DNA of 64,000 nt from Candidatus Bathyarchaeota archaeon (GCA_963833125.1 CAWHWX010000012.1:70403-134402), one strand, 5' to 3'; counted from the first letter of the stretch, positions 10,970-56,778 are shown. Made by a program: numbers and translations. Notes: generated by a model not told the origin, from the sequence alone.

Positions 10970-11785
10970 TTGTCGCTTAGGATAGGCTGCAGTGGTTGGT
11001 CGTACGCGGATTGGGTGGGGCCGTTTTACCCCAAAGAGACTGAGGCGAATCAATACCTAAGTCTCTATTCAAGAGTATTCGACTGCGTGGAGATAGATTC
11101 CACATTCTACCGCGCCCCGACACCCAGCATGGTCCAGCAATGGTACACCAACACTCCGAACGGATTCATATTCGCACCCAAACTCCCAAAACGAATAACG
11201 CATGACCAGCATTTGGAGGACGTTTCATCCTACCTATCACATTTCACAAGAACACTGGAACAGCTTCAAGAAAAACTAGGGCCATTTATCATACAACTTC
11301 CACCTTCATTCAAACTTTCCAAACATGAAAAGGCCCTAACGAACTTCATAGCAGAACTCAATCCGAAATCGAGGTATGCGATAGAGTTTCGACACAAGTC
11401 GTGGTTTAACCCGGACACGCAGAAGCTACTTGAGAATAACAATATCTGCCAAGTCTGGTCCGTTAACCAATACCTCACAACTCCTCCAACCGTCACCTCT
11501 GACATAGTTTACCTTCGTCTCGTTGGAGACCGGGCTTTGACAGAGTTCAAAGAGAAGCAAAGGGATCAGACCGAAATAATGCAAACGTGGAAGAAAGCCC
11601 TAGATGAGGTAGGCGACTCGGTGAAGGATCGCTTCATTTTCTTCAACAACCACTTCGCCGGTTTCGGTCCAGCCTCCGTTAACGAATTCAGGCGCTTGAT
11701 GGGATTGGTGGAGTTGGACTGGTCGAGCCTGACGGGCGGCTCTAAGACGCAGAGGACACTCTTCGACTTCGCAAACGGAGGCTAA
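10970..11785 (+). CDS. DUF72 (UPF0759) family protein
   Basis: RIGCSGWSYADWVGPFYP...EIDSTFY is the diagnostic DUF72 N-terminus. Confidence 0.8.
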   Translation: MSLRIGCSGWSYADWVGPFYPKETEANQYLSLYSRVFDCVEIDSTFYRAPTPSMVQQWYTNTPNGFIFAPKLPKRITHDQHLEDVSSYLSHFTRTLEQLQEKLGPFIIQLPPSFKLSKHEKALTNFIAELNPKSRYAIEFRHKSWFNPDTQKLLENNNICQVWSVNQYLTTPPTVTSDIVYLRLVGDRALTEFKEKQRDQTEIMQTWKKALDEVGDSVKDRFIFFNNHFAGFGPASVNEFRRLMGLVELDWSSLTGGSKTQRTLFDFANGG

Positions 11786-16500: not shown

Positions 16501-18156
16501 TTGGGGTCTTCAGGGCGATTGCTAGCGATTATTGCCTTATCCATCATGTTCGCCGCTCTCCATGTATCCTACGCATTTGCTGACAACAGCTACACAGTTA
16601 CTATCACAGTTCAGGGTTTACCGTCTTCCCTTTCAACGAAAGTCTACGTTGATGGGAGTTATAATGGAACACTGAGCGGTGGGAGCTCAGACACGTTAAC
16701 GCTTTCAATAAATGACAACCCGCATGCCATCTTGGTTGATTCTTATGTGCAAGGGACCGGAAATGGGACACGATATTACGAGAATGATACAGTGTGGGGT
16801 ATCAGCTCACCAGGCAGCCATATGTTCACTTACGTCGCTCAATATTTTCTGTCCGTGGAAACCGCCTTTAGCTCAGCTACAGGCCAATCGTGGTACAACG
16901 CAGGTTCGACTGCTCAGGCCGTGCTTAACGATCAACAAATTGTCGAGGGGCAAGGAACGCGAAACATATTCACAGGTTGGTCTGGCGACGCGACAGGGAC
17001 GCAATTGACTTCGAATGCAATAATTATGGACGGACCAAAGGTCGCAACCGCGAATTGGAAAACCCAGTTTTACTTAACCATTGAATCTAACCCAGCGAAC
17101 GTCACTAGCTTGACAGGTTCTGGGTGGTATGATTCGGGCGTAGACGCTAACTTTTCTGCTGTTATGGTAGCGTCTGGGACATCGAATACGCGCTTGGAGT
17201 TCGATCATTGGAGCGGTGAATACACAGGGCAGCAACCTTCGGGGATGGTGTTGATGGATCGTCCAAAAATTGTCAGTGCCAATTATCTTGTTCAATACCT
17301 TCTGACCGTTATGTACTCCTCACCGAGCGTTTCATCCTCATACAACGAGACTCACGCAGGTTGGTACGCTGCGAATTCTAGCGTGCAACTCGGGCCCGCA
17401 CCATCAATTATCAATTTGAGTACCGTGGAGCGGTTGCGATTTATCGGTTGGTCTGACAACGGTTCTGTATCGAAGAATCTATCGTACTCTGTTTTGGTAG
17501 TTGGGCCACTAAACGTAACTCTCTCCTACACGACGCAATACTATGTTGACGTACGCTCTACATACGGAACGGCTTCCGGTTCGGGTTGGTACGATCGAGG
17601 GACAACCGCAACGATTACCTCCCCAACTACTTCAGGCACCTGGCCCGTTTCGTATGCGCTGACCGGGTGGAGCGTTGACCCGCCCACCGGAACTCTGAAC
17701 AGTACAGAGAATTCGTGGATGTTAACCGTCAATGGGCCATACGTAGTACAGGCAGAATGGGGAGTAGATTACGTCCCACTGATCCTGCTCTTTGGCGGGA
17801 GCGCCGTCGCGTTTGCTGCTGTGGGAGTTACTGCGGTGGTAGTTCACAGGAGGAGTAAAGTTACCGGCAGATCTACTGCTCCTCGCCCGCAAAAAACCGG
17901 CCAGGCTATGTTAGGGTCGCTGGTAGTTTGCAACAGTTGCGGTAACAATGTGCCGAAGGGCGCGGAGTTCTGCGAGAAATGCGGAGCCCCGATCGCGCCA
18001 CTCATCGAACCTTCAACGGAGAATAAGGTATACGACTACATCGTAAAACACGAGGGTATAATTTCCTTGAGCGAAGCATCAGCAGATCTTGCGATACCTG
18101 TTGAGCAGCTAAAGGAAATAACTGAGCGTTTGAAGAGAGAGGGCCGTTTAAGTTAG
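16501..18156 (+). CDS. membrane protein: extracellular InlB-B-repeat-like domains, one TM, then cytoplasmic zinc ribbon + wHTH
   Basis: Signal anchor, then four or more repeats ending F/L-x-GWSGD/HWSGE/GWSDN/GWSVD. TM is LILLFGGSAVAFAAVGVTAVVV, followed by CNSCGNNVPKGAEFCEKCG and YDYIVKHEGIISLSEASADL. Confidence 0.65.
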   Translation: MGSSGRLLAIIALSIMFAALHVSYAFADNSYTVTITVQGLPSSLSTKVYVDGSYNGTLSGGSSDTLTLSINDNPHAILVDSYVQGTGNGTRYYENDTVWGISSPGSHMFTYVAQYFLSVETAFSSATGQSWYNAGSTAQAVLNDQQIVEGQGTRNIFTGWSGDATGTQLTSNAIIMDGPKVATANWKTQFYLTIESNPANVTSLTGSGWYDSGVDANFSAVMVASGTSNTRLEFDHWSGEYTGQQPSGMVLMDRPKIVSANYLVQYLLTVMYSSPSVSSSYNETHAGWYAANSSVQLGPAPSIINLSTVERLRFIGWSDNGSVSKNLSYSVLVVGPLNVTLSYTTQYYVDVRSTYGTASGSGWYDRGTTATITSPTTSGTWPVSYALTGWSVDPPTGTLNSTENSWMLTVNGPYVVQAEWGVDYVPLILLFGGSAVAFAAVGVTAVVVHRRSKVTGRSTAPRPQKTGQAMLGSLVVCNSCGNNVPKGAEFCEKCGAPIAPLIEPSTENKVYDYIVKHEGIISLSEASADLAIPVEQLKEITERLKREGRLS

Positions 18157-18593
18157 AAGAACGGATTCATGCCGTGTTCTGGTTGCTGGTACGTCGCCGG
18201 GTACTGTTGGTATTGGTACGGTTGGTACTGCTGTTGGTACTGCTGGGACTGCGCACTGAACTTCGGAGCTAGGCTCCAATAGCATTCCATGCAGAAGCTT
18301 AGAACTCCGTATTGCTTGTTGCAACCTGCACAAATCGACCTGCCGCACCGCGAACAAACAAATGCAGATGGTAGGTCATGGTGGTAGTAGCAGCTGCCCG
18401 GAGTTTGGATCTGTCTGGGAGTGTACATTGGAGGGGCTCGTGGGGTTGGAACGGTCTGGCCAGTTAATGGGGATTTCACTTCAACTTTGACTGGGGGAAA
18501 TCTTGAAAGTGCAGTGCCGCAACTGAAACAGAATCGTGCGTCCTCGGCGTTTGGTCTGCCGCATGATTGACAGGGAATCATATTCCGAACCAC
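18153..18593 (-). CDS. zinc-ribbon + B-box-like zinc-finger protein with Q/Y/P-rich tail
   Basis: CQSCGRPNAEDARFCFSCG, then C-x2-H-x8-C-x2-C-x4-C-x2-C-x9-C-x2-C (CYYHHDLPSAFVCSRCGRSICAGCNKQYGVLSFCMECY). Paralog of 22824-23666. The ATG alternative start is at 18581. Confidence 0.65.
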   Translation of the reverse strand: MVRNMIPCQSCGRPNAEDARFCFSCGTALSRFPPVKVEVKSPLTGQTVPTPRAPPMYTPRQIQTPGSCYYHHDLPSAFVCSRCGRSICAGCNKQYGVLSFCMECYWSLAPKFSAQSQQYQQQYQPYQYQQYPATYQQPEHGMNPFF

Positions 18594-18740: not shown

Positions 18741-19991
18741 TTAAGTCAATCGAAGTATTGATTCATGGAGTTCTTGGTTCTTGCCCTCAGCCAAGACTCT
18801 CAGGTAATCCCCCCGCTTGCCAGCCCTACGAAGTGGTGATTTACCCTCTATTTTCCGTGTCCCCTCCGAGTTTTCGGCGAAAATCGTGAGCTCTCCATCC
18901 CCAAGGTTAGACGCTTTACGAATTGATTCTTCTACCGTGGCCTTAGCAGCACGTGGGCTATCTAGCGGTAGGTCGTTTCGCGGGACGACGATCCTTCCCG
19001 TTCCGTCCTTCCCGCAAACAATGCATCGCACGCTTCGTTTGAGATCCATGGTGCTGTAGCGGTTGTTCTTGAGATCGACGAACAGGATTGATCTGAGCGG
19101 TTGACCAGTTGTTTCAGGCCACTTCGTGGTTGTCTTGTATGCCTCTAAACCGAGGATTACTTTGACCGCTTCTTGTGCGAGGATAGACGAGACTAGGGAA
19201 ATTGATGTCGCAAAGGAAGGAACGGTTTCTTGTTCCAGGGGTCCCTCGCATGGGTTGCGGAGGCCGGCGATGCTCGAATACTGGTTCGCGGGAAACATGC
19301 AAACTGGGCAAGCGTCATCGGGTGGTAGGTAGGAGTGAACCCTTCCGTTCAATCCAATAATTCCCGCGTCGATCAGAGGAATTGAGTATTTTCGGCAGGT
19401 TTGAGTAAGGAAGATTCGTGAGACGACATTGTCTAAACCGCAAACGATCACTTGGGAGTCCAGGTAAAGTTTCAATGGCATACGTTCGAGATCGCCGCGG
19501 TAAGCGGTCGTTGTTACGAATGGATACTTCAGATGAAGGTTCTTAGCCAAAAATTCGGCCTTGTTCCTGCCTAAGTCTTTAGGTTGGAAGAAGATCATTC
19601 GGCTTACGTTTGAGAGTTCGATACGGTCGCGGTCAACAATTACGATTCTCCCGACTCCCAGCATGGCGAGGTTTTTAGCAGCCTCGTTACCTATAGCCCC
19701 CGCGCCCGCCAAAAGCACCGTTGCGCTTCGAATCTTCTTCTGTCCTTCGGCGCCCCAGACAAGTAGTTGCCGAGCCCAGAGATAGTCTAGGATGATTGGG
19801 TCCTTTTCGGTTTTGAGTTTGGCAACGGTTGATGTTTCTGCCAGTCGCTTACCGTGGAACAGGCATTTTGTAAGGTCAGATTCTATGCCTAGTTTTCTAC
19901 AGGCTAATTGTTTGAATTCCCTGATCGTTCTTGTAGGGGGTAGATCAATCTCAATTTCCTTATACCGCGGGATAGACGCACGAAGTTTCAT
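18741..19991 (-). CDS. E1-like ubiquitin-activating enzyme (ThiF/MoeB fold) with fused N-terminal Ubl domain
   Basis: LLAGAGAIGNEAAKNLAMLGVGRIVIVDRDRIELSNVSR (nucleotide loop), plus CPVC and CIVCG zinc pairs. The first ~70 aa follow a ubiquitin-like pattern (CLFHGKRLAETSTVAKL...PIILDYL). Confidence 0.85.
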   Translation of the reverse strand: MKLRASIPRYKEIEIDLPPTRTIREFKQLACRKLGIESDLTKCLFHGKRLAETSTVAKLKTEKDPIILDYLWARQLLVWGAEGQKKIRSATVLLAGAGAIGNEAAKNLAMLGVGRIVIVDRDRIELSNVSRMIFFQPKDLGRNKAEFLAKNLHLKYPFVTTTAYRGDLERMPLKLYLDSQVIVCGLDNVVSRIFLTQTCRKYSIPLIDAGIIGLNGRVHSYLPPDDACPVCMFPANQYSSIAGLRNPCEGPLEQETVPSFATSISLVSSILAQEAVKVILGLEAYKTTTKWPETTGQPLRSILFVDLKNNRYSTMDLKRSVRCIVCGKDGTGRIVVPRNDLPLDSPRAAKATVEESIRKASNLGDGELTIFAENSEGTRKIEGKSPLRRAGKRGDYLRVLAEGKNQELHESILRLT

Positions 19992-20584
19992 TATCGCGGC
20001 GTCCGATTGCCCTTACCGGGGATGGTGAACGTCACTAAATCACCAGGTTGAGAGAGTACCGTTGGGGCTCTCGGGATAGGGACTATGTTGAAGTGAACGG
20101 TATCGTCCGATTCCTCTTTCGCTTTGTGCCTAGTCATTCTCGGAAACCCATGTGATCGGCAAACGTCGGCAGCTTTCAAGGCGCGGGGGTTATCGAAAAC
20201 ACTTTGTGGGTTCGGGTCCGTTAGGAGGTAGTGTAGTGAATTGACGACCGAAATTAGTTTGAGCCGTGGGTCCCATTTTTCTCCGAGGACAGATACGCAA
20301 ACTGCGTTTGGTATGTTCGGGACAATATTCGGGTGAGAGATATCGGTGAGCCAAGTCGCCACGGGAGGCTTCAATGGATATTCGGGTGGCAGGTCGAGTT
20401 TGAATCGATTCCAGTTCACGTACTCGGTGAAGGGCCAGACTCCTTTCTCGGCAAGTCGTCTCACCTCTCCTTTCTCGCACCGGATTAGGCCCTCGAATTG
20501 GGTAGGGGGGTCATTTAGCGCTGTGATTGTCGGGAATTGGTGGTTGAGGAGGCTCTTCTCCTTGTAAAGCAGGGTAGCGTCCAA
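19991..20584 (-). CDS. E2-like ubiquitin-conjugating enzyme (UBC fold, HPN type)
   Basis: PPEYPLKPPVATWLTDISHPNIVPN...AVCVSVLGEKWDP has the YPxxPP, HPN and catalytic Cys motifs and the W.P motif. The stop shares a base with the E1 ATG (TAATG). Confidence 0.85.
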   Translation of the reverse strand: MDATLLYKEKSLLNHQFPTITALNDPPTQFEGLIRCEKGEVRRLAEKGVWPFTEYVNWNRFKLDLPPEYPLKPPVATWLTDISHPNIVPNIPNAVCVSVLGEKWDPRLKLISVVNSLHYLLTDPNPQSVFDNPRALKAADVCRSHGFPRMTRHKAKEESDDTVHFNIVPIPRAPTVLSQPGDLVTFTIPGKGNRTPR

Positions 20585-20596
20585 GCGGTTTCAGCC

Positions 20597-20839
20597 CTAC
20601 CCGCCAATTATGTTGTATGGCATGAGGGCGAGTTGCGCATTTTCTGGAATGCCGGATCTCGCTACGGTAGTGCCTTCGTCTAATATTGCGCCTCCGTACA
20701 TGAGAGCGACCGTTGTTGGGTCAACCCCAAATGACGTACACACCTGCTGCTTAATCTCTGCAACCGTGTGGTCAGGGATTACGTCGATCTCTGCCAGACC
20801 TGTCTGAGGGCCTATGGGGGCTTGAATGAATAATTTCAT
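20597..20839 (-). CDS. ubiquitin-like modifier ending in Gly-Gly
   Basis: 80 aa: MKLFIQAP...DHTVAEIKQQVCTSFGVDPTTVALMYGGAILDEGTTVARSGIPENAQLALMPYNIIGG, then stop. GGAGGTGA lies 10 nt upstream (20850-20857). Confidence 0.8.
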   Translation of the reverse strand: MKLFIQAPIGPQTGLAEIDVIPDHTVAEIKQQVCTSFGVDPTTVALMYGGAILDEGTTVARSGIPENAQLALMPYNIIGG

Positions 20840-20894: not shown

Positions 20895-22433
20895 CTACCT
20901 TACTGTAAGCTCGACAGTTAGGGCGTGTACGAGCCCGCCTCCAACTGCCTCTATCGTGATAGGGTAGGTCCCTCCCTTTGTAAAGGCTGGTATTGTTATT
21001 TGGATTGTTATTGTAGTCGTTCCGGGGCCTCCAGGTAGAACAGTCGGGTTGCTTGTCAAGGTATACTTTGCTCCTTGAGGGAGGTTCAGCAAGGTTATGT
21101 TCACAGGGTCTACGAACCCTTTTTGGAGAGTTAACCTAAGATTAAGTGTCGCCTTTGAACCGGTCTGTACTGTGACACTGGTTGGCGAGATTTGCAGTGA
21201 GAAATCGGCTACCGTTATGTTAAGTACTGTTTGTCTGGTTACATACGGTGATTGAGAGGGTAGGTAGTCGGCAATCAGAGCTATTGGATAGGTGCCGTTA
21301 GGGGTAGTCGAGTCTGCGGTCACATTCAAGCTCACGGTTGTTCCTGTAGGAGCAGGGTTTGTCGAGAATGTGATCGTTAAGCCGCTGGGGTTTCCGTTGG
21401 CCGAGAGCTGGACTTGTTGTGCGAACTCATTGATTGACACTATCTGGATCTTTGTGACTGCATACCTCGTTCTGTACACTGTGAGCGAGCTGGTTTGTGG
21501 TAGGATGTTGAAATCCGCAATGACGATGTGGTATGTGTTCGTGTTGACTTGCTTGCCTGTAGAATCTGATGCTCTGATGTAGTAGGTGATGTTTCCGGTC
21601 ACCTGATTACTTGGGATGACGTAGCTGAATTCTCCGGTCCCAATCGAATTCATGGGGACTTGTGTGGTTGGGCCCTCGGTTGCTGGGCCATAAACCAAGG
21701 TTACGTTATGCGCAGGACCAGTTGTGTTGGCAGTAATCGTAATTGGTGTTCCAATGGTCCCTACCGAGACGGGGTTATGAATGATGGCTACCGACGATTG
21801 CGGGGATGTCTTGTAACTATAGATTAGGCCTCCAAATACTGCCAGCAACACAACCAGAACAACCAAGACCATGGCCAGCGCTGCACGCTTTGTCAGGACT
21901 TGTCGTGCAGGTGGTCGTCGTCTGACTTCTACAGTCGGCGTGGGCGCTACAACCGTAGCTGTCGTTTGACGCGGTGGGGTGGCGTCCTTTGGATCAGAGT
22001 AAACTATTATGTTCGCTTCGGGGATCCGAATGGCTTTGTCAGTTCCTGGGATCACCCTGAAGTATCCGACTTCTCCGTTTCTTGAATCAACCACCAAGCC
22101 TGTAATCAATGCTGAGAATTGCTGTAACTTTTTTTGAGTTGAAATGTCCGTCTCGGAAAAGAATAATCCATCCCTAGTGTGTGAGTGGTACCATCCTACG
22201 ATGTTGCCTTTGAGGCGTCCAGAAACGAGTTGATCGGCTATGATTGCTATGGAGCCGGGCGGTAGTGTGGCGCGATGAGGTTCGGATGAGAATTCATGAG
22301 TGGTTGAGTCTTCGATGATTATTGTGTCGTCTTGGAGTTTGCCGAGTAGTAGCCCAATAATCTCGGTTTCGGTGTCCCGTGCAGCTTGGACAATCCTGTC
22401 CTTGACAGGTTTCGAGATGCTGACGTAGGACAT
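20895..22433 (-). CDS. JAMM/MPN+ (Rpn11-like) metalloprotease fused to a TM helix and extracytoplasmic Ig-like repeats
   Basis: EIIGLLLGK...GWYHSHTRDGLFFSETD (E, HxH-x7-S-x2-D). TM is AALAMVLVVLVVLLAVFGGLIY, followed by ~300 aa of beta-rich T/V/N repeats. Confidence 0.85.
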   Translation of the reverse strand: MSYVSISKPVKDRIVQAARDTETEIIGLLLGKLQDDTIIIEDSTTHEFSSEPHRATLPPGSIAIIADQLVSGRLKGNIVGWYHSHTRDGLFFSETDISTQKKLQQFSALITGLVVDSRNGEVGYFRVIPGTDKAIRIPEANIIVYSDPKDATPPRQTTATVVAPTPTVEVRRRPPARQVLTKRAALAMVLVVLVVLLAVFGGLIYSYKTSPQSSVAIIHNPVSVGTIGTPITITANTTGPAHNVTLVYGPATEGPTTQVPMNSIGTGEFSYVIPSNQVTGNITYYIRASDSTGKQVNTNTYHIVIADFNILPQTSSLTVYRTRYAVTKIQIVSINEFAQQVQLSANGNPSGLTITFSTNPAPTGTTVSLNVTADSTTPNGTYPIALIADYLPSQSPYVTRQTVLNITVADFSLQISPTSVTVQTGSKATLNLRLTLQKGFVDPVNITLLNLPQGAKYTLTSNPTVLPGGPGTTTITIQITIPAFTKGGTYPITIEAVGGGLVHALTVELTVR

Positions 22434-22823: not shown

Positions 22824-23666
22824 CTATCGTCCAAGCATGCCGAGTATTCCGCCCAGCACACCTAAGACGAAGCCGGCCACAAAGCCTCCACCGATTATGA
22901 GGCTTAGCACTGCCATCGGGAAGACGACGATGCTTCCGATTGTTCCGTAGCCAAGCAGCATCAGTATTGACCCGATTACCAGTATTAGCCCTATGATTAC
23001 GCCGATTGCGAATGATAGGCTAGCAGGGCCGAGTGCTGGCAACCAGAAGAATACTCCGACCCACATCGCGTAGAACCCAGGCGCAAGCAAAGCTGCTGCG
23101 TTGAGGATTACAAGTATCCCAGCGATTACTGAGAGAATGAATCCCCATAGTGATCTGGGTGACGAGGGGGCGTACATTGGCGGTGGTGGATACACTGGGT
23201 AGGCAGCTGCTGGTGGAGCCATCGGTGGTGGACCGAATGCTGGTCCAGCCATAGGTGGAGCCATCATAGGTGGCGCTGCCATAGGCGGTTGGCTATAGGA
23301 TTGAGCCATTGGCTGTTGGGGCGGGCTATAGGCGGCTTGTGCTGGTTGTTGTGCTACCATTGGAACGACTCCTGCGTAACATTGCGGGCACAGGACGAGA
23401 TCCATGTATGCTTTTGAGTCATCGCAACAAATCGACCTTCCACAGCGGTTGCAGACGTATACTGCTGGGAGGTTGGGGTGATAATAGCATTGTCCTGGTG
23501 CGGGCACACGAATAGGTCCGCCTTGGCTGACTGGTGTTACTACGCGGACGGATGGGACTGGTTTGAGTGAGGGGACCGCGCTGCCTGCGAGAGATGCTCC
23601 ACAGCTTGAACAGAATGATGCGTCATCACGATTGTTGTAGCCGCATGATGGGCATTTCTTGACCAT
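22824..23666 (-). CDS. zinc-ribbon + B-box-like zinc finger + P/M/A-rich linker + multi-TM domain protein
   Basis: CPSCGYNNRDDASFCSSCG and CYYHPNLPAVYVCNRCGRSICCDDSKAYMDLVLCPQCY, then a low-complexity PPMAAPPMM stretch and about four TM helices. Confidence 0.7.
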   Translation of the reverse strand: MVKKCPSCGYNNRDDASFCSSCGASLAGSAVPSLKPVPSVRVVTPVSQGGPIRVPAPGQCYYHPNLPAVYVCNRCGRSICCDDSKAYMDLVLCPQCYAGVVPMVAQQPAQAAYSPPQQPMAQSYSQPPMAAPPMMAPPMAGPAFGPPPMAPPAAAYPVYPPPPMYAPSSPRSLWGFILSVIAGILVILNAAALLAPGFYAMWVGVFFWLPALGPASLSFAIGVIIGLILVIGSILMLLGYGTIGSIVVFPMAVLSLIIGGGFVAGFVLGVLGGILGMLGR

Positions 23667-24355: not shown

Positions 24356-24865
24356 CTAGTGGCATTGAAGAGAATTTCTCATGGAGTCCATGATCCTATC
24401 GTATCTGCCACCGCTTCCGCTTGGCGTCATAGTGTACAGCACGTAATATCTGTTTGATTTGGGGCAGTGAACGTGTAAGGAATATGCTTCCCTCGGAATG
24501 CTCTTGCTTCCAGTTAGGCCAGCTGATCTTTCGTCGAACTTAACCTTGTTCACGGAAACTTTGTGATTGTGTAGGGATAATGTGTCACGGGATACTCGCT
24601 CGAAGTTCTTCACATTCTTGCCCTTCTTCATGGCGTCAAGGCTGAAATCTGCGTGTTCTTCGGTAGTTGGGAATCGTTTAGAGACCTTCTCCAAATCTCC
24701 CCAAGAGAGGTATATTCTAACCCGGTCCACTTTGTCGGGGAGATGGAACACGACGTCGCCTGATTCGCGCCGCCCTTTCGAGTTGAATTCGACCCGGCTC
24801 TCTTCAGGGTAGTCTAACGAGAAGCCGTAGATGCTGAAATTTTCGAAGGAATCTGTCACAGCCAA
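24356..24865 (-). CDS. hypothetical protein
   Basis: Long ORF with a TTG start and no recognisable motif. Confidence 0.4.
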   Translation of the reverse strand: MAVTDSFENFSIYGFSLDYPEESRVEFNSKGRRESGDVVFHLPDKVDRVRIYLSWGDLEKVSKRFPTTEEHADFSLDAMKKGKNVKNFERVSRDTLSLHNHKVSVNKVKFDERSAGLTGSKSIPREAYSLHVHCPKSNRYYVLYTMTPSGSGGRYDRIMDSMRNSLQCH

Positions 24866-31338: not shown

Positions 31339-31450
31339 TGGTGCCGGGGGCGGGGTTCGAACCCGCGGCTTCTGGGCCCACTGCTTTCCAGATTATGAGT
31401 TTCGTCCCACTAAGCCTGACTGGCGCTCTACCAGGCTGAGCCACCCCGGC
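31339..31450 (-). tRNA. tRNA(CAU), elongator Met or Ile2, with two non-canonical introns and encoded CCA
   Basis: The reverse complement reads GCCGGGG TG GCTC AGCCTGGTA GAGC G CCAG[19 nt]A CTCATAA TCTGG [21 nt in the variable region where ~5 is expected, i.e. a ~16-nt insert] GCGGG TTCGAAC CCCGC CCCCGGC A CCA. Confidence 0.8.
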
Positions 31451-54715: not shown

Positions 54716-54816
54716 TGGTGGGGCCGGCCGGATTTGAACCGGCGGCTTCGCGGTTGCCTCGGAGCAACTCACGCGGGCCCAAGCCGCGTATCATAACCAT
54801 GCTAGACTACGGCCCC
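54716..54816 (-). tRNA. tRNA-Pro(UGG) with canonical-position intron and encoded CCA
   Basis: The reverse complement reads GGGGCCG TA GTCT..TGAT A CGCGG CTTGGG[~23 nt]A CCGCG AAGCC GCCGG TTCAAAT CCGGC CGGCCCC A CCA. Confidence 0.85.
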
Positions 54817-54894: not shown

Positions 54895-55143
54895 ATGCCA
54901 TGGACTTCCCTTGACCTGAAACTCAATCCATGTTTCCACAAAGCTTTTTCAGTATCTTGGCAGAAACAGTTGCTCGTGTTTCGGTTGTCGGAAGATCAAG
55001 TTGAGGAAGTCGAATTGGTCATGGTTGGCCCGCCGCTTGAAGTCCTGGGGGATCTCTATGTCTGCGCTAGTTGCGGAGCCCCGCTCACCGAGATTCCGGC
55101 ATATAATCGGTTCTATTGTGAGAACTGCGGCTTACACTACTAG
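54895..55143 (+). CDS. small zinc-ribbon protein
   Basis: C-terminal CASCGAPL...YCENCG. The real start may be the internal ATG (MVGPPLEV). Confidence 0.4.
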   Translation: MPWTSLDLKLNPCFHKAFSVSWQKQLLVFRLSEDQVEEVELVMVGPPLEVLGDLYVCASCGAPLTEIPAYNRFYCENCGLHY

Positions 55144-55206: not shown

Positions 55207-56778
55207 TTGCGAGATAACAGAGAGCGGCAACCACGCAGCCATTGCCATATGGCGACCGCTTGCATTCTCGTTATTGCGATCACTATAGTGTGCACCGCCG
55301 TGGCTCAACACTCAGTCGCAGCAGTTGCTACCTCACCACGGTACATCGACGAGTATGACGTGCCGACTCCAAATTCTGCTCCGCTCGCTTTGACTGTGGA
55401 TCGGAATGGAATTGTTTGGTTTACTGAGTCGAATGCAACTAAACTCGGTCGGTTCGATCCGAGGACAAACTCCTTCACGGAGTATGCGGTTCCTGGGGTG
55501 GGAGATATGTGGGGAATAACTGTTGATCAGAGCGGAGCCATTTGGTTAACCCAATACTCCCTCAAAGGTTCAGTAAACCCAGGAGGAGCAATCGAACCTG
55601 GAGGAAACGGAAGACTGGTTCGGTTCAACCCGAGTGATGGAAACTTCACGGTCATCACAATTCCGACTCCCGGATCTTTCCCGTTCAGAATAATCTCAGA
55701 TGCACAAGGCCAACTGTGGTTTACGGAACTGTTAGGAAATAAGATAGGTTCGTACGATCCATTCTCTGGCAAACTTGAGGAGTATCTTGTTCCAACTCAG
55801 TTTGCCGGCCCGGCGGATCTAACATTCGACAGTCACGGTACATTATGGTTCACCGAAGCCTACAACGAATCAGTTGCAAGGTTCGACCTGCAAACGAAAA
55901 CGTTCATCGAGTACCATTTTTCCTCAATAGACCCCACACAGTACGTTGGCTCCCCGGTCGGGATCGCCGTCACACCAGGACGGAGTCGTGTGGATAGCTG
56001 ATCACGGCGGAAACTGGATTGTAGAATTCAACTCCACGTCCCAGCAAATAATCCGCTATCCAACCCACGAACCCCCACCACAAGTCTATCCAATTTCGAT
56101 ACCAAACGATTTGCTGCTAGACGGAGAGGGAAGAGTATGGTTCTGCGGAGCATGGCGGCAACAGCATAGGCTTTCTAGAACCCAGCACGCAGAAGATGGT
56201 TGAGTTCGCCATTCCAACTGGACCGATCAGCACCGCTCTATGGATCGCCTTGGCCCCCGATGGGAACGTATGGTTTACTGAATGGAGTGGAAACAAGATT
56301 GGAGTCGTCCAAGCGAACCAAACAGTTCCCTTCGCTGTAAGCGCCTCTGAAAGTCAGTTAGATCTGCAGCCCGGCGGGCAAACCAGTTTAATGTTGTCAG
56401 CGAGCGGTGTGCAGAGCTCCAGGAAACGGGACTTATGTTTACTCCTGGCCGTCATACACTCCTCAAGACGTTAACGTAACCTACTCTCCGCAAAGTGCAT
56501 CACTCATGAACCTCGCCAACAACCCAAGTCAGGCTACTATCACGGTCTCCCCACGCACGACACCTGGACAGTACGTTCTCGGGTTGGGACTCGACGCCGG
56601 TACTGTGAGAGTTTGGGCTATGGTCAAGACTGAAGTGAGCGGTAAGGCAGCAGTGACGTTCCTGCTGCCTAATACAGACTGGTTCATTATTGGCGCGGCG
56701 GTCGTAGTTGTGGTTCTGATTCTTGTAAGGCAAAAGCGACTTCAAAAATCGAGTCCGAAGACGGCTGTTCGGCCCTGA
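55207..56778 (+). pseudogene. secreted beta-propeller (Vgb/SMP-30-like WFTE repeats) with C-terminal TM anchor, split over four frames
   Basis: Repeats are GIVWFTESNATKLGRFDP, AIWLTQ, QLWFTELLGNKIGSYDP, TLWFTEAYNESVARFD, VVWIADHGGNWIVEF and NVWFTEWSGNKIGVV. Fragments are 55207-56001, 55946-56203, 56196-56474 and 56407-56778. Confidence 0.65.

Follow-up and report, generated by a model that had tools for sequence, protein, structure and literature searches.

The DNA considered here is a 64,000-nucleotide stretch from Candidatus Bathyarchaeota archaeon (GCA_963833125.1 CAWHWX010000012.1:70403-134402), which is called the window below. Its minus strand carries an open reading frame (ORF), 20895..22433, that begins with ATG, encodes a protein of 512 amino acids (aa) and ends with the stop codon at 20895-20897. 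Based on the ORF, its homologues and an AlphaFold2 (AF2) model, the product consists of a JAMM domain, a linker, a transmembrane (TM) helix and three Ig-like domains, and it will be referred to as the JAMM-TM-Ig protein. The gene lies in a cluster with the order B-box-like membrane protein > JAMM-TM-Ig > ubiquitin > E2 > ubiquitin-like (UBL)-E1 > B-box-like < receptor-like. Taking sequence, structure prediction and synteny together, the JAMM-TM-Ig protein is likely to be the dedicated deubiquitylase (DUB) of the adjacent ubiquitin system, tethered at the cytoplasmic face of the membrane.

A database search returned 444 homologues, and the detailed figures given below come from the 120 best. 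Most of these (112 of the 120) are colinear with the window protein over their full length (498-534 aa, 98-100% coverage, 44-83% identity); they are drawn from NCBI, ENA, JGI and Logan assemblies, and come mostly from soil and peat Bathyarchaeia. These homologues bear on the trivial explanation that separate JAMM and surface-protein genes were joined by an indel during assembly or annotation. Partial database entries (P0014, P0016, P0072, P0075, P0077, P0113, P0114 and P0119) might be taken as traces of such separate genes. However, most of them lie on short contigs and start or stop in mid-protein, P0014 comes from a locus (L002) in which the tblastn match is split near residue 57, and P0113 is a distinct and genuine paralogue in which a zinc ribbon and a TM helix precede the same ectodomain. 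When GTDB species genomes were scanned, 18 loci with a close relative were located, and these have either an intact frame or a variant that keeps the same JAMM domain and linker. With 112 full-length homologues from independent assemblies and 18 genome loci, an erroneous joining of two genes is practically out of the question and was rejected. The fusion described in an earlier, sequence-only reading of the window is thus genuine, and the orthologs that keep it, for which that reading had proposed a search, are abundant.

The JAMM domain is of the Rpn11/CSN5-like (MPN+) metalloprotease type and occupies residues 1-150 (21984..22433; this and all other parts of the gene are on the minus strand), with a predicted location in the cytoplasm. 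Pfam JAB (PF01398) matches residues 4-106 with E=3.6e-11 and 43.3 bits (cutoff 22.5), and the Prok-JAB match likewise exceeds its threshold (E=1.1e-09, 38.6 bits, cutoff 25). The catalytic motif, E24...H83-S-H85-x7-S93-x2-D96, is complete, and all five residues are invariant both in a set of 25 homologues and in the 112; the domain also has the highest mean pairwise identity of any part of the protein (69%). When the JAMM protein was searched against the whole PDB by sequence, eukaryote-type MPN+ enzymes and the Caldiarchaeum Rpn11 were the sole matches, the closest being the Caldiarchaeum Rpn11 homologue (6fjv, 1.2e-11), CSN5 (3e-10) and Rpn11 (9e-07), with BRCC36 and AMSH also recovered. The AF2 model, which was built on the 112-sequence alignment and has a mean predicted local distance difference test (pLDDT) score of 85.6, shows an MPN fold at residues 1-150. 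In a Foldseek comparison with the PDB, this N-terminal part matched the Caldiarchaeum enzyme, CsRpn11 (6fnn; TM-score 0.82, root-mean-square deviation 2.2 Å), Rpn11 (TM-score 0.79) and CSN5. By sequence and by predicted fold this is a JAMM/MPN+ domain, and the earlier description of a complete N-terminal JAMM domain of about 150 aa was correct.

Between the JAMM domain and the membrane lies a Pro/Thr/Arg juxtamembrane linker (residues 151-183; 21885..21983). It is predicted to be disordered (pLDDT below 50 at residues 156-180), and its mean pairwise identity among the 112 sequences is 40%, a short embedded motif excepted. This linear motif, P164-T-P-T-V-E-V-R-R-R173 (21915..21944), is recognized by its conservation: T165, P166, E169 and R171 are each kept in 106-108 of the 112 sequences, with variable flanks on either side. 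The linker leads into AALAMVLVVLVVLLAVFGGLIY, residues 184-205 (21819..21884), which is the sole segment over the hydropathy threshold (Kyte-Doolittle 19-mer mean 3.16), lies within an AF2 helix (182-208), and is 39% identical on average. Lys and Arg residues number 6 in the 20 residues before the helix versus 1 in the 20 residues after it. All seven of the N-x-S/T sequons in the 512-aa protein are located C-terminal of the helix, and the homologues average 5.5 sequons in the ectodomain versus 0.4 in the cytoplasmic part. Three of the window sequons are particularly well retained (N236 in 101/112, N243 in 96/112 and N379 in 86/112). Because of the positive-inside rule, the lack of a signal peptide and the C-terminal sequons, the predicted topology is N-in/C-out, with the JAMM domain inside and an Ig-like stalk outside that is probably N-glycosylated. 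The sequence-only reading had likewise put the isopeptidase on the inner side of the membrane, ahead of one TM helix and an Ig-like region of about 300 aa, and hydropathy, AF2 and Foldseek all agree with that architecture.

Beyond the helix, AF2 predicts three extracellular beta-sandwiches, mostly with pLDDT above 90. Ig-like domain 1 spans residues ~213-305 (21519..21797) and contains sequons N236 and N243; domain 2 spans residues ~306-410 (21204..21518) and contains N379; and domain 3 spans residues ~411-512 (20898..21203). A Foldseek search of the PDB with this C-terminal part, a check that had been recommended from the sequence, matched tandem Ig-like domains (titin I67-I69, E=6e-11; DIP Ig1-3), with further matches to hydin-type and alpha-2-macroglobulin-type domains. 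Pfam matches in the ectodomain are weak (NPCBM_assoc 0.013, PKD 0.05), and because none is above its family threshold the ectodomain is left without a specific family. Each Ig-like domain has a mean pairwise identity of ~50%, indicative of purifying selection, and the ectodomain therefore has a role of its own. The paralogue mentioned above carries the same Ig-like domains. The true ORF of P0113 is L029:3701-4894 (plus strand), on a 66.8 kb contig of JGI 3300010339, and encodes a 397-aa protein without a JAMM domain, in which a zinc ribbon at the N-terminus is followed by a TM helix, a Thr/Ser-rich stalk and three Ig-like domains. Its ectodomain is 77% identical to window residues ~215-512, and nearby genes encode more membrane proteins with zinc ribbons, along with many small ORFs for which no family is recorded. 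The Ig-like region is therefore a cassette that is shared with a non-JAMM protein; no ectodomain paralogue was found inside the window.

The genes immediately downstream of the JAMM gene, all on the minus strand, encode the components of a ubiquitin system. The first is a ubiquitin-like modifier of 80 aa that ends in ...IIGG followed directly by the stop codon (20597..20839; Pfam ubiquitin 2.2e-09). The second is an E2 ubiquitin-conjugating enzyme of 197 aa with an HPN...C motif (19991..20584; Pfam UQ_con 3e-16), whose gene is syntenic throughout the related loci, and the third is an E1 of 416 aa with a ThiF-type adenylation domain and an N-terminal UBL domain (18741..19991; ThiF 9.4e-50, Pfam ubiquitin 1.1e-06 over residues 10-67, NCBIfam Ube1 5e-24). 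Going downstream from the JAMM gene, the same-strand spacings are 55 nt, 12 nt, a 1-nt overlap (of E1 with the E2 stop codon) and 147 nt. The stop codon of the upstream gene, which encodes a 280-aa protein, is followed by a T-run, and ~30 nt ahead of the JAMM ATG there is a TATA-like box (both read by eye). The JAMM gene therefore probably begins the transcript, as the first gene of a JAMM > ubiquitin > E2 > UBL-E1 operon. Judged by these similarities, the cluster would belong among the eukaryote-like ubiquitin operons of archaea, a type that was first recognized in Caldiarchaeum. With a full ubiquitin-E2-E1 operon alongside, the substrate class of the JAMM domain should be ubiquitin ending in GG.

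BLASTP of the window ubiquitin against human ubiquitin gave no alignment; the modifier is therefore divergent, and its assignment is based on the Pfam profile and the GG end. It contains two lysines only, K2 and K30. The UBL domain of archaeal E1-like enzymes in the literature is mostly C-terminal. An N-terminal UBL domain is also recorded on the E1 of two distant loci described below (L030 and L032), and the E1 of a third (L028) has an N-terminal extension. A RING match, which would point to a RING-type E3, was not found in the cluster.

CsRpn11 processes a 9-residue pro-peptide (PMC5654768), and by analogy the JAMM-TM-Ig protein could be a ubiquitin maturase or recycler with an incidental anchor, which trims ubiquitin precursors or clears adventitious adducts. 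Two related loci do encode a ubiquitin with a 2-residue tail after the GG. However, the window ubiquitin ends with GG-stop, as does that of 16 of 17 loci (the exception ends in GGSC), so that no maturation is needed. Since translation itself yields a ubiquitin with a terminal GG, the processing of precursors is probably not the main job of the enzyme. In addition, anchoring is kept across very different C-terminal modules, as described next, and this argues that the anchor is not incidental. A maturase of this kind is very improbable.

The extent to which the membrane anchor is conserved became clear from a wider search, in which residues 1-180 were compared with 1.8 billion cluster representatives. 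There were 315 matches with E<=0.001, 28 of them below 1e-30, and domain analysis covered the 66 nearest representatives, 62 of which have the JAMM motif. A TM helix directly follows the JAMM domain (position ~170-220) in 44 of these 62, and in most of the 44 Lys and Arg are more numerous before the helix than after it. In 36 of the 44, a single helix is followed by 100 residues or more. Their ectodomains are mutually unrelated, carry up to 24 sequons and include Ig-like, PKD, Big_7 and coiled-coil alternatives, and a few relatives have a short TM tail only (P0207, P0213 and P0215). The equivalently placed gene of five sister loci, L014-L018 (10001 to ~11150-11270, plus strand; proteins P0194 and P0198), keeps the JAMM domain and the linker, and then continues into a polytopic membrane domain that corresponds to DUF998 (Pfam E=4e-24). 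The linker motif is kept in these variants as P-T-[VLP]-E-V.

Four distant members of the family, with JAMM identities of 37-40%, were checked in their contigs, and all four lie beside ubiquitin-system genes (ubiquitin, E2, E1, and zinc-ribbon or B-box-like genes). L032 (38% identity) reproduces the window gene order exactly, and L028 (40% identity) has the order JAMM-TM > ubiquitin > E2 > UBL-E1 > B-box-TM. In L030, from a Thermoprotei metagenome-assembled genome (MAG), and in L031, a ubiquitin-E2 fusion adjoins the JAMM gene. The fusion joins ubiquitin to the N-terminus of E2 (Pfam ubiquitin plus UQ_con) and is encoded at L030:11874-12740 (minus strand) and L031:3108-3800 (plus strand). Going by the predicted helices, membrane tethering of the JAMM domain is a conserved trait, and the ectodomain is exchangeable across lineages. 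The assumption in the sequence-only reading that known JAMM enzymes are soluble holds for CsRpn11 but is too narrow for the family at large, since TM-anchored Rpn11-like JAMM proteins are common among the nearest representatives. That reading also overlooked the operon context and the variability of the ectodomain.

Another possible reading is that the JAMM-TM-Ig protein is a one-component transmembrane signalling enzyme, a receptor-coupled DUB in which an ectodomain ligand (an envelope component, a neighbouring cell, a virus or a polymer) switches the isopeptidase on or off, probably via clustering or dimerization. Signal-coupled control of (de)ubiquitylation had been one of the two functions suggested from the sequence. 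The ectodomain is under purifying selection, with conserved core residues and sequons, as would be expected of a sensor. The occurrence of the triple Ig cassette on the L029 zinc-ribbon paralogue recalls receptor families that share sensing modules, and the conserved cluster includes one more membrane protein of receptor-like build. However, the sister lineages swap the TM helix and ectodomain for the polytopic DUF998 in an identical operon context, and the relatives with a TM tail only argue that the system works without an Ig ectodomain. The Pfam scan recognized no ligand-binding family, and one TM helix joined to a disordered linker of ~30 residues would be a poor conformational conduit. 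The replaceable ectodomain and the disordered tether therefore weigh against allosteric signalling, and with it against the earlier suggestion; control by clustering is possible. Overall, a receptor-coupled DUB is rather unlikely.

The remaining genes of the cluster encode proteins with zinc modules. Adjoining the JAMM gene upstream in 15 loci is the gene for the 280-aa protein (22824..23666, minus strand), which has a zinc ribbon, a B-box-like domain, a Pro-rich linker and, as judged by hydropathy with peaks between residues 176 and 238, a multi-span domain; this protein is a candidate membrane E3. Downstream of the E1 gene is the gene for a soluble protein of 146 aa (18153..18593, minus strand; Zn_Ribbon_1 3.4e-06), which combines a zinc ribbon with a B-box-like binuclear zinc finger and is a candidate E3 or adaptor. 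The two B-box-like proteins are paralogous, with eight invariant Cys/His ligands that in the 146-aa protein are C68-x2-H71-x8-C80-x2-C83-x4-C88-x2-C91-x9-C101-x2-C104. Weak or faint precomputed B-box matches are present in L028, L030 and L032. The membrane domain of the 280-aa protein (residues ~170-280) is near-invariant across 16 orthologues, which exceeds the needs of a plain anchor. It ends in the Gly-rich GGGFVAGFVLGVLGGILGMLGR, and in L026 a gene fragment that lies upstream of the JAMM gene has the same C-terminus.

A gene convergent with the operon encodes a receptor-like type I membrane protein of 551 aa (16501..18156, plus strand; Flg_new_2 8.7e-10, Zn_Ribbon_1 3.2e-06), and it is syntenic in 16 loci. 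The protein has a signal peptide, an InlB B-repeat ectodomain and a TM segment at 425-443; a zinc ribbon follows on the cytoplasmic side, and a domain of ~48 residues forms the C-terminus. Both the 280-aa and the 551-aa proteins are therefore predicted membrane proteins whose zinc modules would face the cytoplasm. The second function suggested by the sequence-only reading, action on membrane substrates, fits these co-conserved neighbours. Elsewhere in the window, the zinc-ribbon segment in the tail of the 551-aa protein has another, weak match at ~55042-55131 (plus strand; tblastn E=0.008), just upstream of the ORF 55207-56001, and may add to the set of zinc-ribbon proteins.

The intact active site, the operon linkage to a processing-free ubiquitin and the membrane tethering are the reasons for regarding the JAMM-TM-Ig protein as a dedicated eraser. 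In the proposed model, the E1 and E2 would attach ubiquitin through its terminal GG to lysines of proteins that lie along the inner membrane face, with the B-box-like proteins probably assisting as E3s or adaptors. The membrane proteins encoded in the cluster, through their cytoplasmic tails, are candidate targets, as are membrane proteins from elsewhere. On its disordered leash of ~30 residues, the JAMM domain would then remove or edit membrane-proximal conjugates and recycle the ubiquitin. The PTPTVEVRRR motif beside the membrane could provide a docking site for a partner in the system, and the ectodomain might position or cluster the enzyme in the envelope through homotypic, S-layer or ligand contacts.

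Several points weigh against this model or parts of it. The topology is derived from hydropathy, charge rules and the AF2 model. Purifying selection at ~50% identity implies that the ectodomain has a specific job, which the tether model leaves vague. The 2-residue ubiquitin tails in two loci (GGSC and GGSD) raise the prospect that processing may matter in some lineages. Finally, the E3 identity of the B-box-like proteins is weak: zf-B_box falls below the Pfam threshold for both proteins (E=0.012 for the 146-aa and 0.024 for the 280-aa protein), and a PDB profile search with the B-box-like protein matches only the N-terminal zinc ribbon (ArnA, DZANK1). The AF2 model of the B-box-like domain protein has a pLDDT of 68.6 (about 86-91 at residues 71-110), and Foldseek with this model gave nothing better than E=0.33.

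The tail of the 551-aa protein and the linkers of its neighbours allow a bolder interpretation. A profile of 15 such tails matches the 'broken' winged helix of Sulfolobus ESCRT-III/CdvB (PDB 2xvc_A, E=2.6e-05). The match spans profile positions 4-48 of 48 and chain positions 12-56 of 59; a single tail sequence gives E=0.23, with 2xvc_A again as the top match. In the window this CdvB-like tail lies at about 18010-18153 (plus strand), the last ~48 residues of the protein. Two other proteins have the same tail, one of them a B-repeat protein of 710 aa (L026) and the other a double-zinc-ribbon protein of 124 aa (L029). The Sulfolobus CdvB winged helix binds the CdvA E3B peptide, which completes its fold (PMC12909875). 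Linker conservation reveals Pro-flanked V-x-V strands within the otherwise variable linkers of three cluster proteins, namely PTPTVEVRRR in the JAMM protein (21915-21944) and PPVKVEVKSP and PVPSVRVVTPV in the B-box-like proteins (residues 33-42 of the product of 18153-18593 and residues 35-46, KPVPSVRVVTPV, of the product of 22824-23666; all minus strand). KVNVIQP and KVRVIAP in L028 are further strands of this kind. These motifs resemble SUMO-interacting motif (SIM)-type or strand-addition motifs and may be candidate docking peptides.

The cluster could then be a self-contained writer-eraser-receptor machine embedded in the membrane, made up of a membrane B-box-like ligase, an Rpn11-like eraser and a receptor tail with a broken winged helix. 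The V-x-V strands would dock in the CdvB-like winged helix and so assemble the enzymes on the receptor tail, and the whole would be a prokaryotic forerunner of the way in which membrane proteins are sorted or quality-controlled through ubiquitin. If true, this would mean that logic like that of endoplasmic reticulum (ER)-associated degradation (ERAD) or of the endosomal ESCRT system, coupled to sensing of the outside, exists in a non-Asgard archaeon. We consider this interpretation unlikely.

The genomic context speaks to the history of the system. Of the 18 loci in the GTDB scan, twelve, from peat and soil, bear the label Bathyarchaeia or Bathyarchaeota, and one more bears only the label 'archaeon'. 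By tblastn with the proteins of the window cluster, all seven cluster genes are present in the same order in 13 of the 18; in the remaining five, a contig end truncates the cluster or one gene is displaced. The neighbouring genes are of a housekeeping nature (Y-family polymerase, DHDPS, ribose-5-phosphate isomerase (RpiA), acyl-CoA dehydrogenase and CoxG), and because these flanks are themselves syntenic, the cluster appears to be a vertically inherited core system. Ubiquitin remains 91-99% identical across 17 loci, in which the identity of the JAMM protein drops to as little as 40%. Three contigs binned as bacteria (3.2, 14.7 and 32.5 kb) carry the same archaeal synteny and are therefore presumably mis-binned. 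The loci L003, L005 and L011, and the protein P0056, belong to MAGs labelled Nitrospiraceae, Acidiferrales, Methylomirabilota and Terriglobales, probably through Bathyarchaeia contamination.

The same context is relevant to a role in anti-viral defence, in which the cluster would be a Bil-like or CBASS-type-II-like module with the JAMM domain at the membrane and the ectodomain as a virus sensor or decoy. Bacterial operons that encode Ubl, E1, E2 and JAB proteins are reported to act against phage (PMC10557695). Surface Ig-like domains are typical virus contact points, and the PADLOC E1-E2 and BilD models match the E1 adenylation domain (E=3e-19 and 2e-08), with the JAB model at 0.004. These PADLOC matches reflect generic E1 and JAB similarity, however, and the ubiquitin, the E2 and the zinc proteins match nothing. 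Moreover, the housekeeping neighbours and the flanks that stay syntenic across genomes with 40-85% JAMM identity are not those of a mobile island, and the 91-99% conservation of ubiquitin is unlike the fast evolution of defence components. A defence function is quite improbable on this evidence. Membership in the Bil or CBASS type II systems was rejected, given the generic nature of the PADLOC matches and the syntenic housekeeping context.

Among characterized enzymes, CsRpn11 (6FJV, 6FNN) is the nearest solved relative by sequence and fold. It has the same catalytic motif, and its gene lies beside those for ubiquitin, E2 and E1 in a TACK archaeon (Caldiarchaeum subterraneum, RING operon). CsRpn11 is a stand-alone DUB that cleaves both ubiquitin fusions and isopeptide conjugates (PMC5654768, PMC6043591), and by analogy the window JAMM domain would be expected to act alone, without an Rpn8-like partner. 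However, CsRpn11 is a soluble protein of ~200 aa, is encoded divergently from the operon, and must remove a ubiquitin pro-peptide (PMC5654768, PMC6043591), whereas the window enzyme has 512 aa, is membrane-anchored with an ectodomain, and is encoded co-directionally as the first gene of the operon. The systems also differ in that the window ubiquitin is ready-made and the candidate E3s are B-box-like rather than RING-H2. In addition, the UBL domain of the window E1 is N-terminal, in contrast to the C-terminal UBL described for E1-like enzymes of archaeal clusters I and II, which include the C. subterraneum E1.

Rpn11, CSN5, AMSH and BRCC36 share the fold and active site of the window JAMM domain. 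These eukaryotic MPN+ isopeptidases are soluble and are sited via partners (the proteasome lid, the COP9 signalosome (CSN), STAM/ESCRT-III and BRISC). The nearest functional analogy is AMSH/STAMBP, which acts at endosomal membranes on ubiquitylated membrane cargo. We know of no characterized MPN+ enzyme that is an integral membrane protein with an ectodomain. DUBs fixed in a membrane by a single TM segment do exist, namely USP30 in the mitochondrial outer membrane and USP19 with its ER tail anchor, but the likeness is one of analogy only. Both are USP-family cysteine proteases of another fold, and neither has a large lumenal or extracellular domain.

Prokaryotic JAB peptidases provide two further comparisons. 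Cap3 (CBASS type II), BilC and BubC resemble the window enzyme in that a JAB peptidase is encoded in one operon with Ubl, E1 and E2. They are, however, soluble or E1-fused (PMC11601596) and are associated with defence or located in mobile elements, and their sequences are far from the window JAMM domain (no PDB match at E<=1; PADLOC JAB 0.004). The desampylases HvJAMM1 and PfJAMM1 are likewise archaeal JAMM isopeptidases that remove a beta-grasp modifier. They differ in being soluble and in serving the SAMP system, which lacks both E2 and E3. With the NCBIfam desampylase model, the window JAMM domain reaches only 23 bits (cutoff 130).

In the open-access literature, no description of a membrane-anchored Rpn11-like JAMM protein or of a Bathyarchaeia ubiquitin operon was found. 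Named database entries for the family mostly read 'proteasome lid subunit RPN8/RPN11', and also 'COP9 signalosome subunit 5'. Such labels hide the membrane architecture, and the present finding corrects this annotation. Archaeal eukaryote-like ubiquitin systems are the best models for the origin of ubiquitin signalling, but prior descriptions of them have dealt with soluble enzymes and artificial substrates. The JAMM-TM family points to a site of action, in that three components, namely the predicted eraser, a candidate ligase and a partner resembling a receptor, are integrated in the membrane, and the arrangement spans Bathyarchaeia and more distant Thermoproteota-like lineages. The membrane-bound accessory proteins, together with the JAMM protein, suggest membrane-localized ubiquitin signalling in a prokaryote. 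Whether the ubiquitylation of membrane proteins, with the cargo logic of ERAD, endocytic sorting and ESCRT, is older than eukaryotes thereby becomes a testable question. The system itself offers the reagents: a stand-alone JAMM domain, a processing-free ubiquitin, the E1, the E2, and the cytoplasmic tails as candidate substrates.

Some other features of the window should be recorded. An ORF of 169 aa on the minus strand, 24356-24865, has no Pfam match, and proteins with 59-84% identity to it are encoded upstream of the cluster in five related loci. Two tRNA genes, at 31342-31450 and 54719-54816 (both on the minus strand), measure 109 and 98 nt as compared with the 71 positions of the model, and the length of both is consistent with archaeal tRNA introns.

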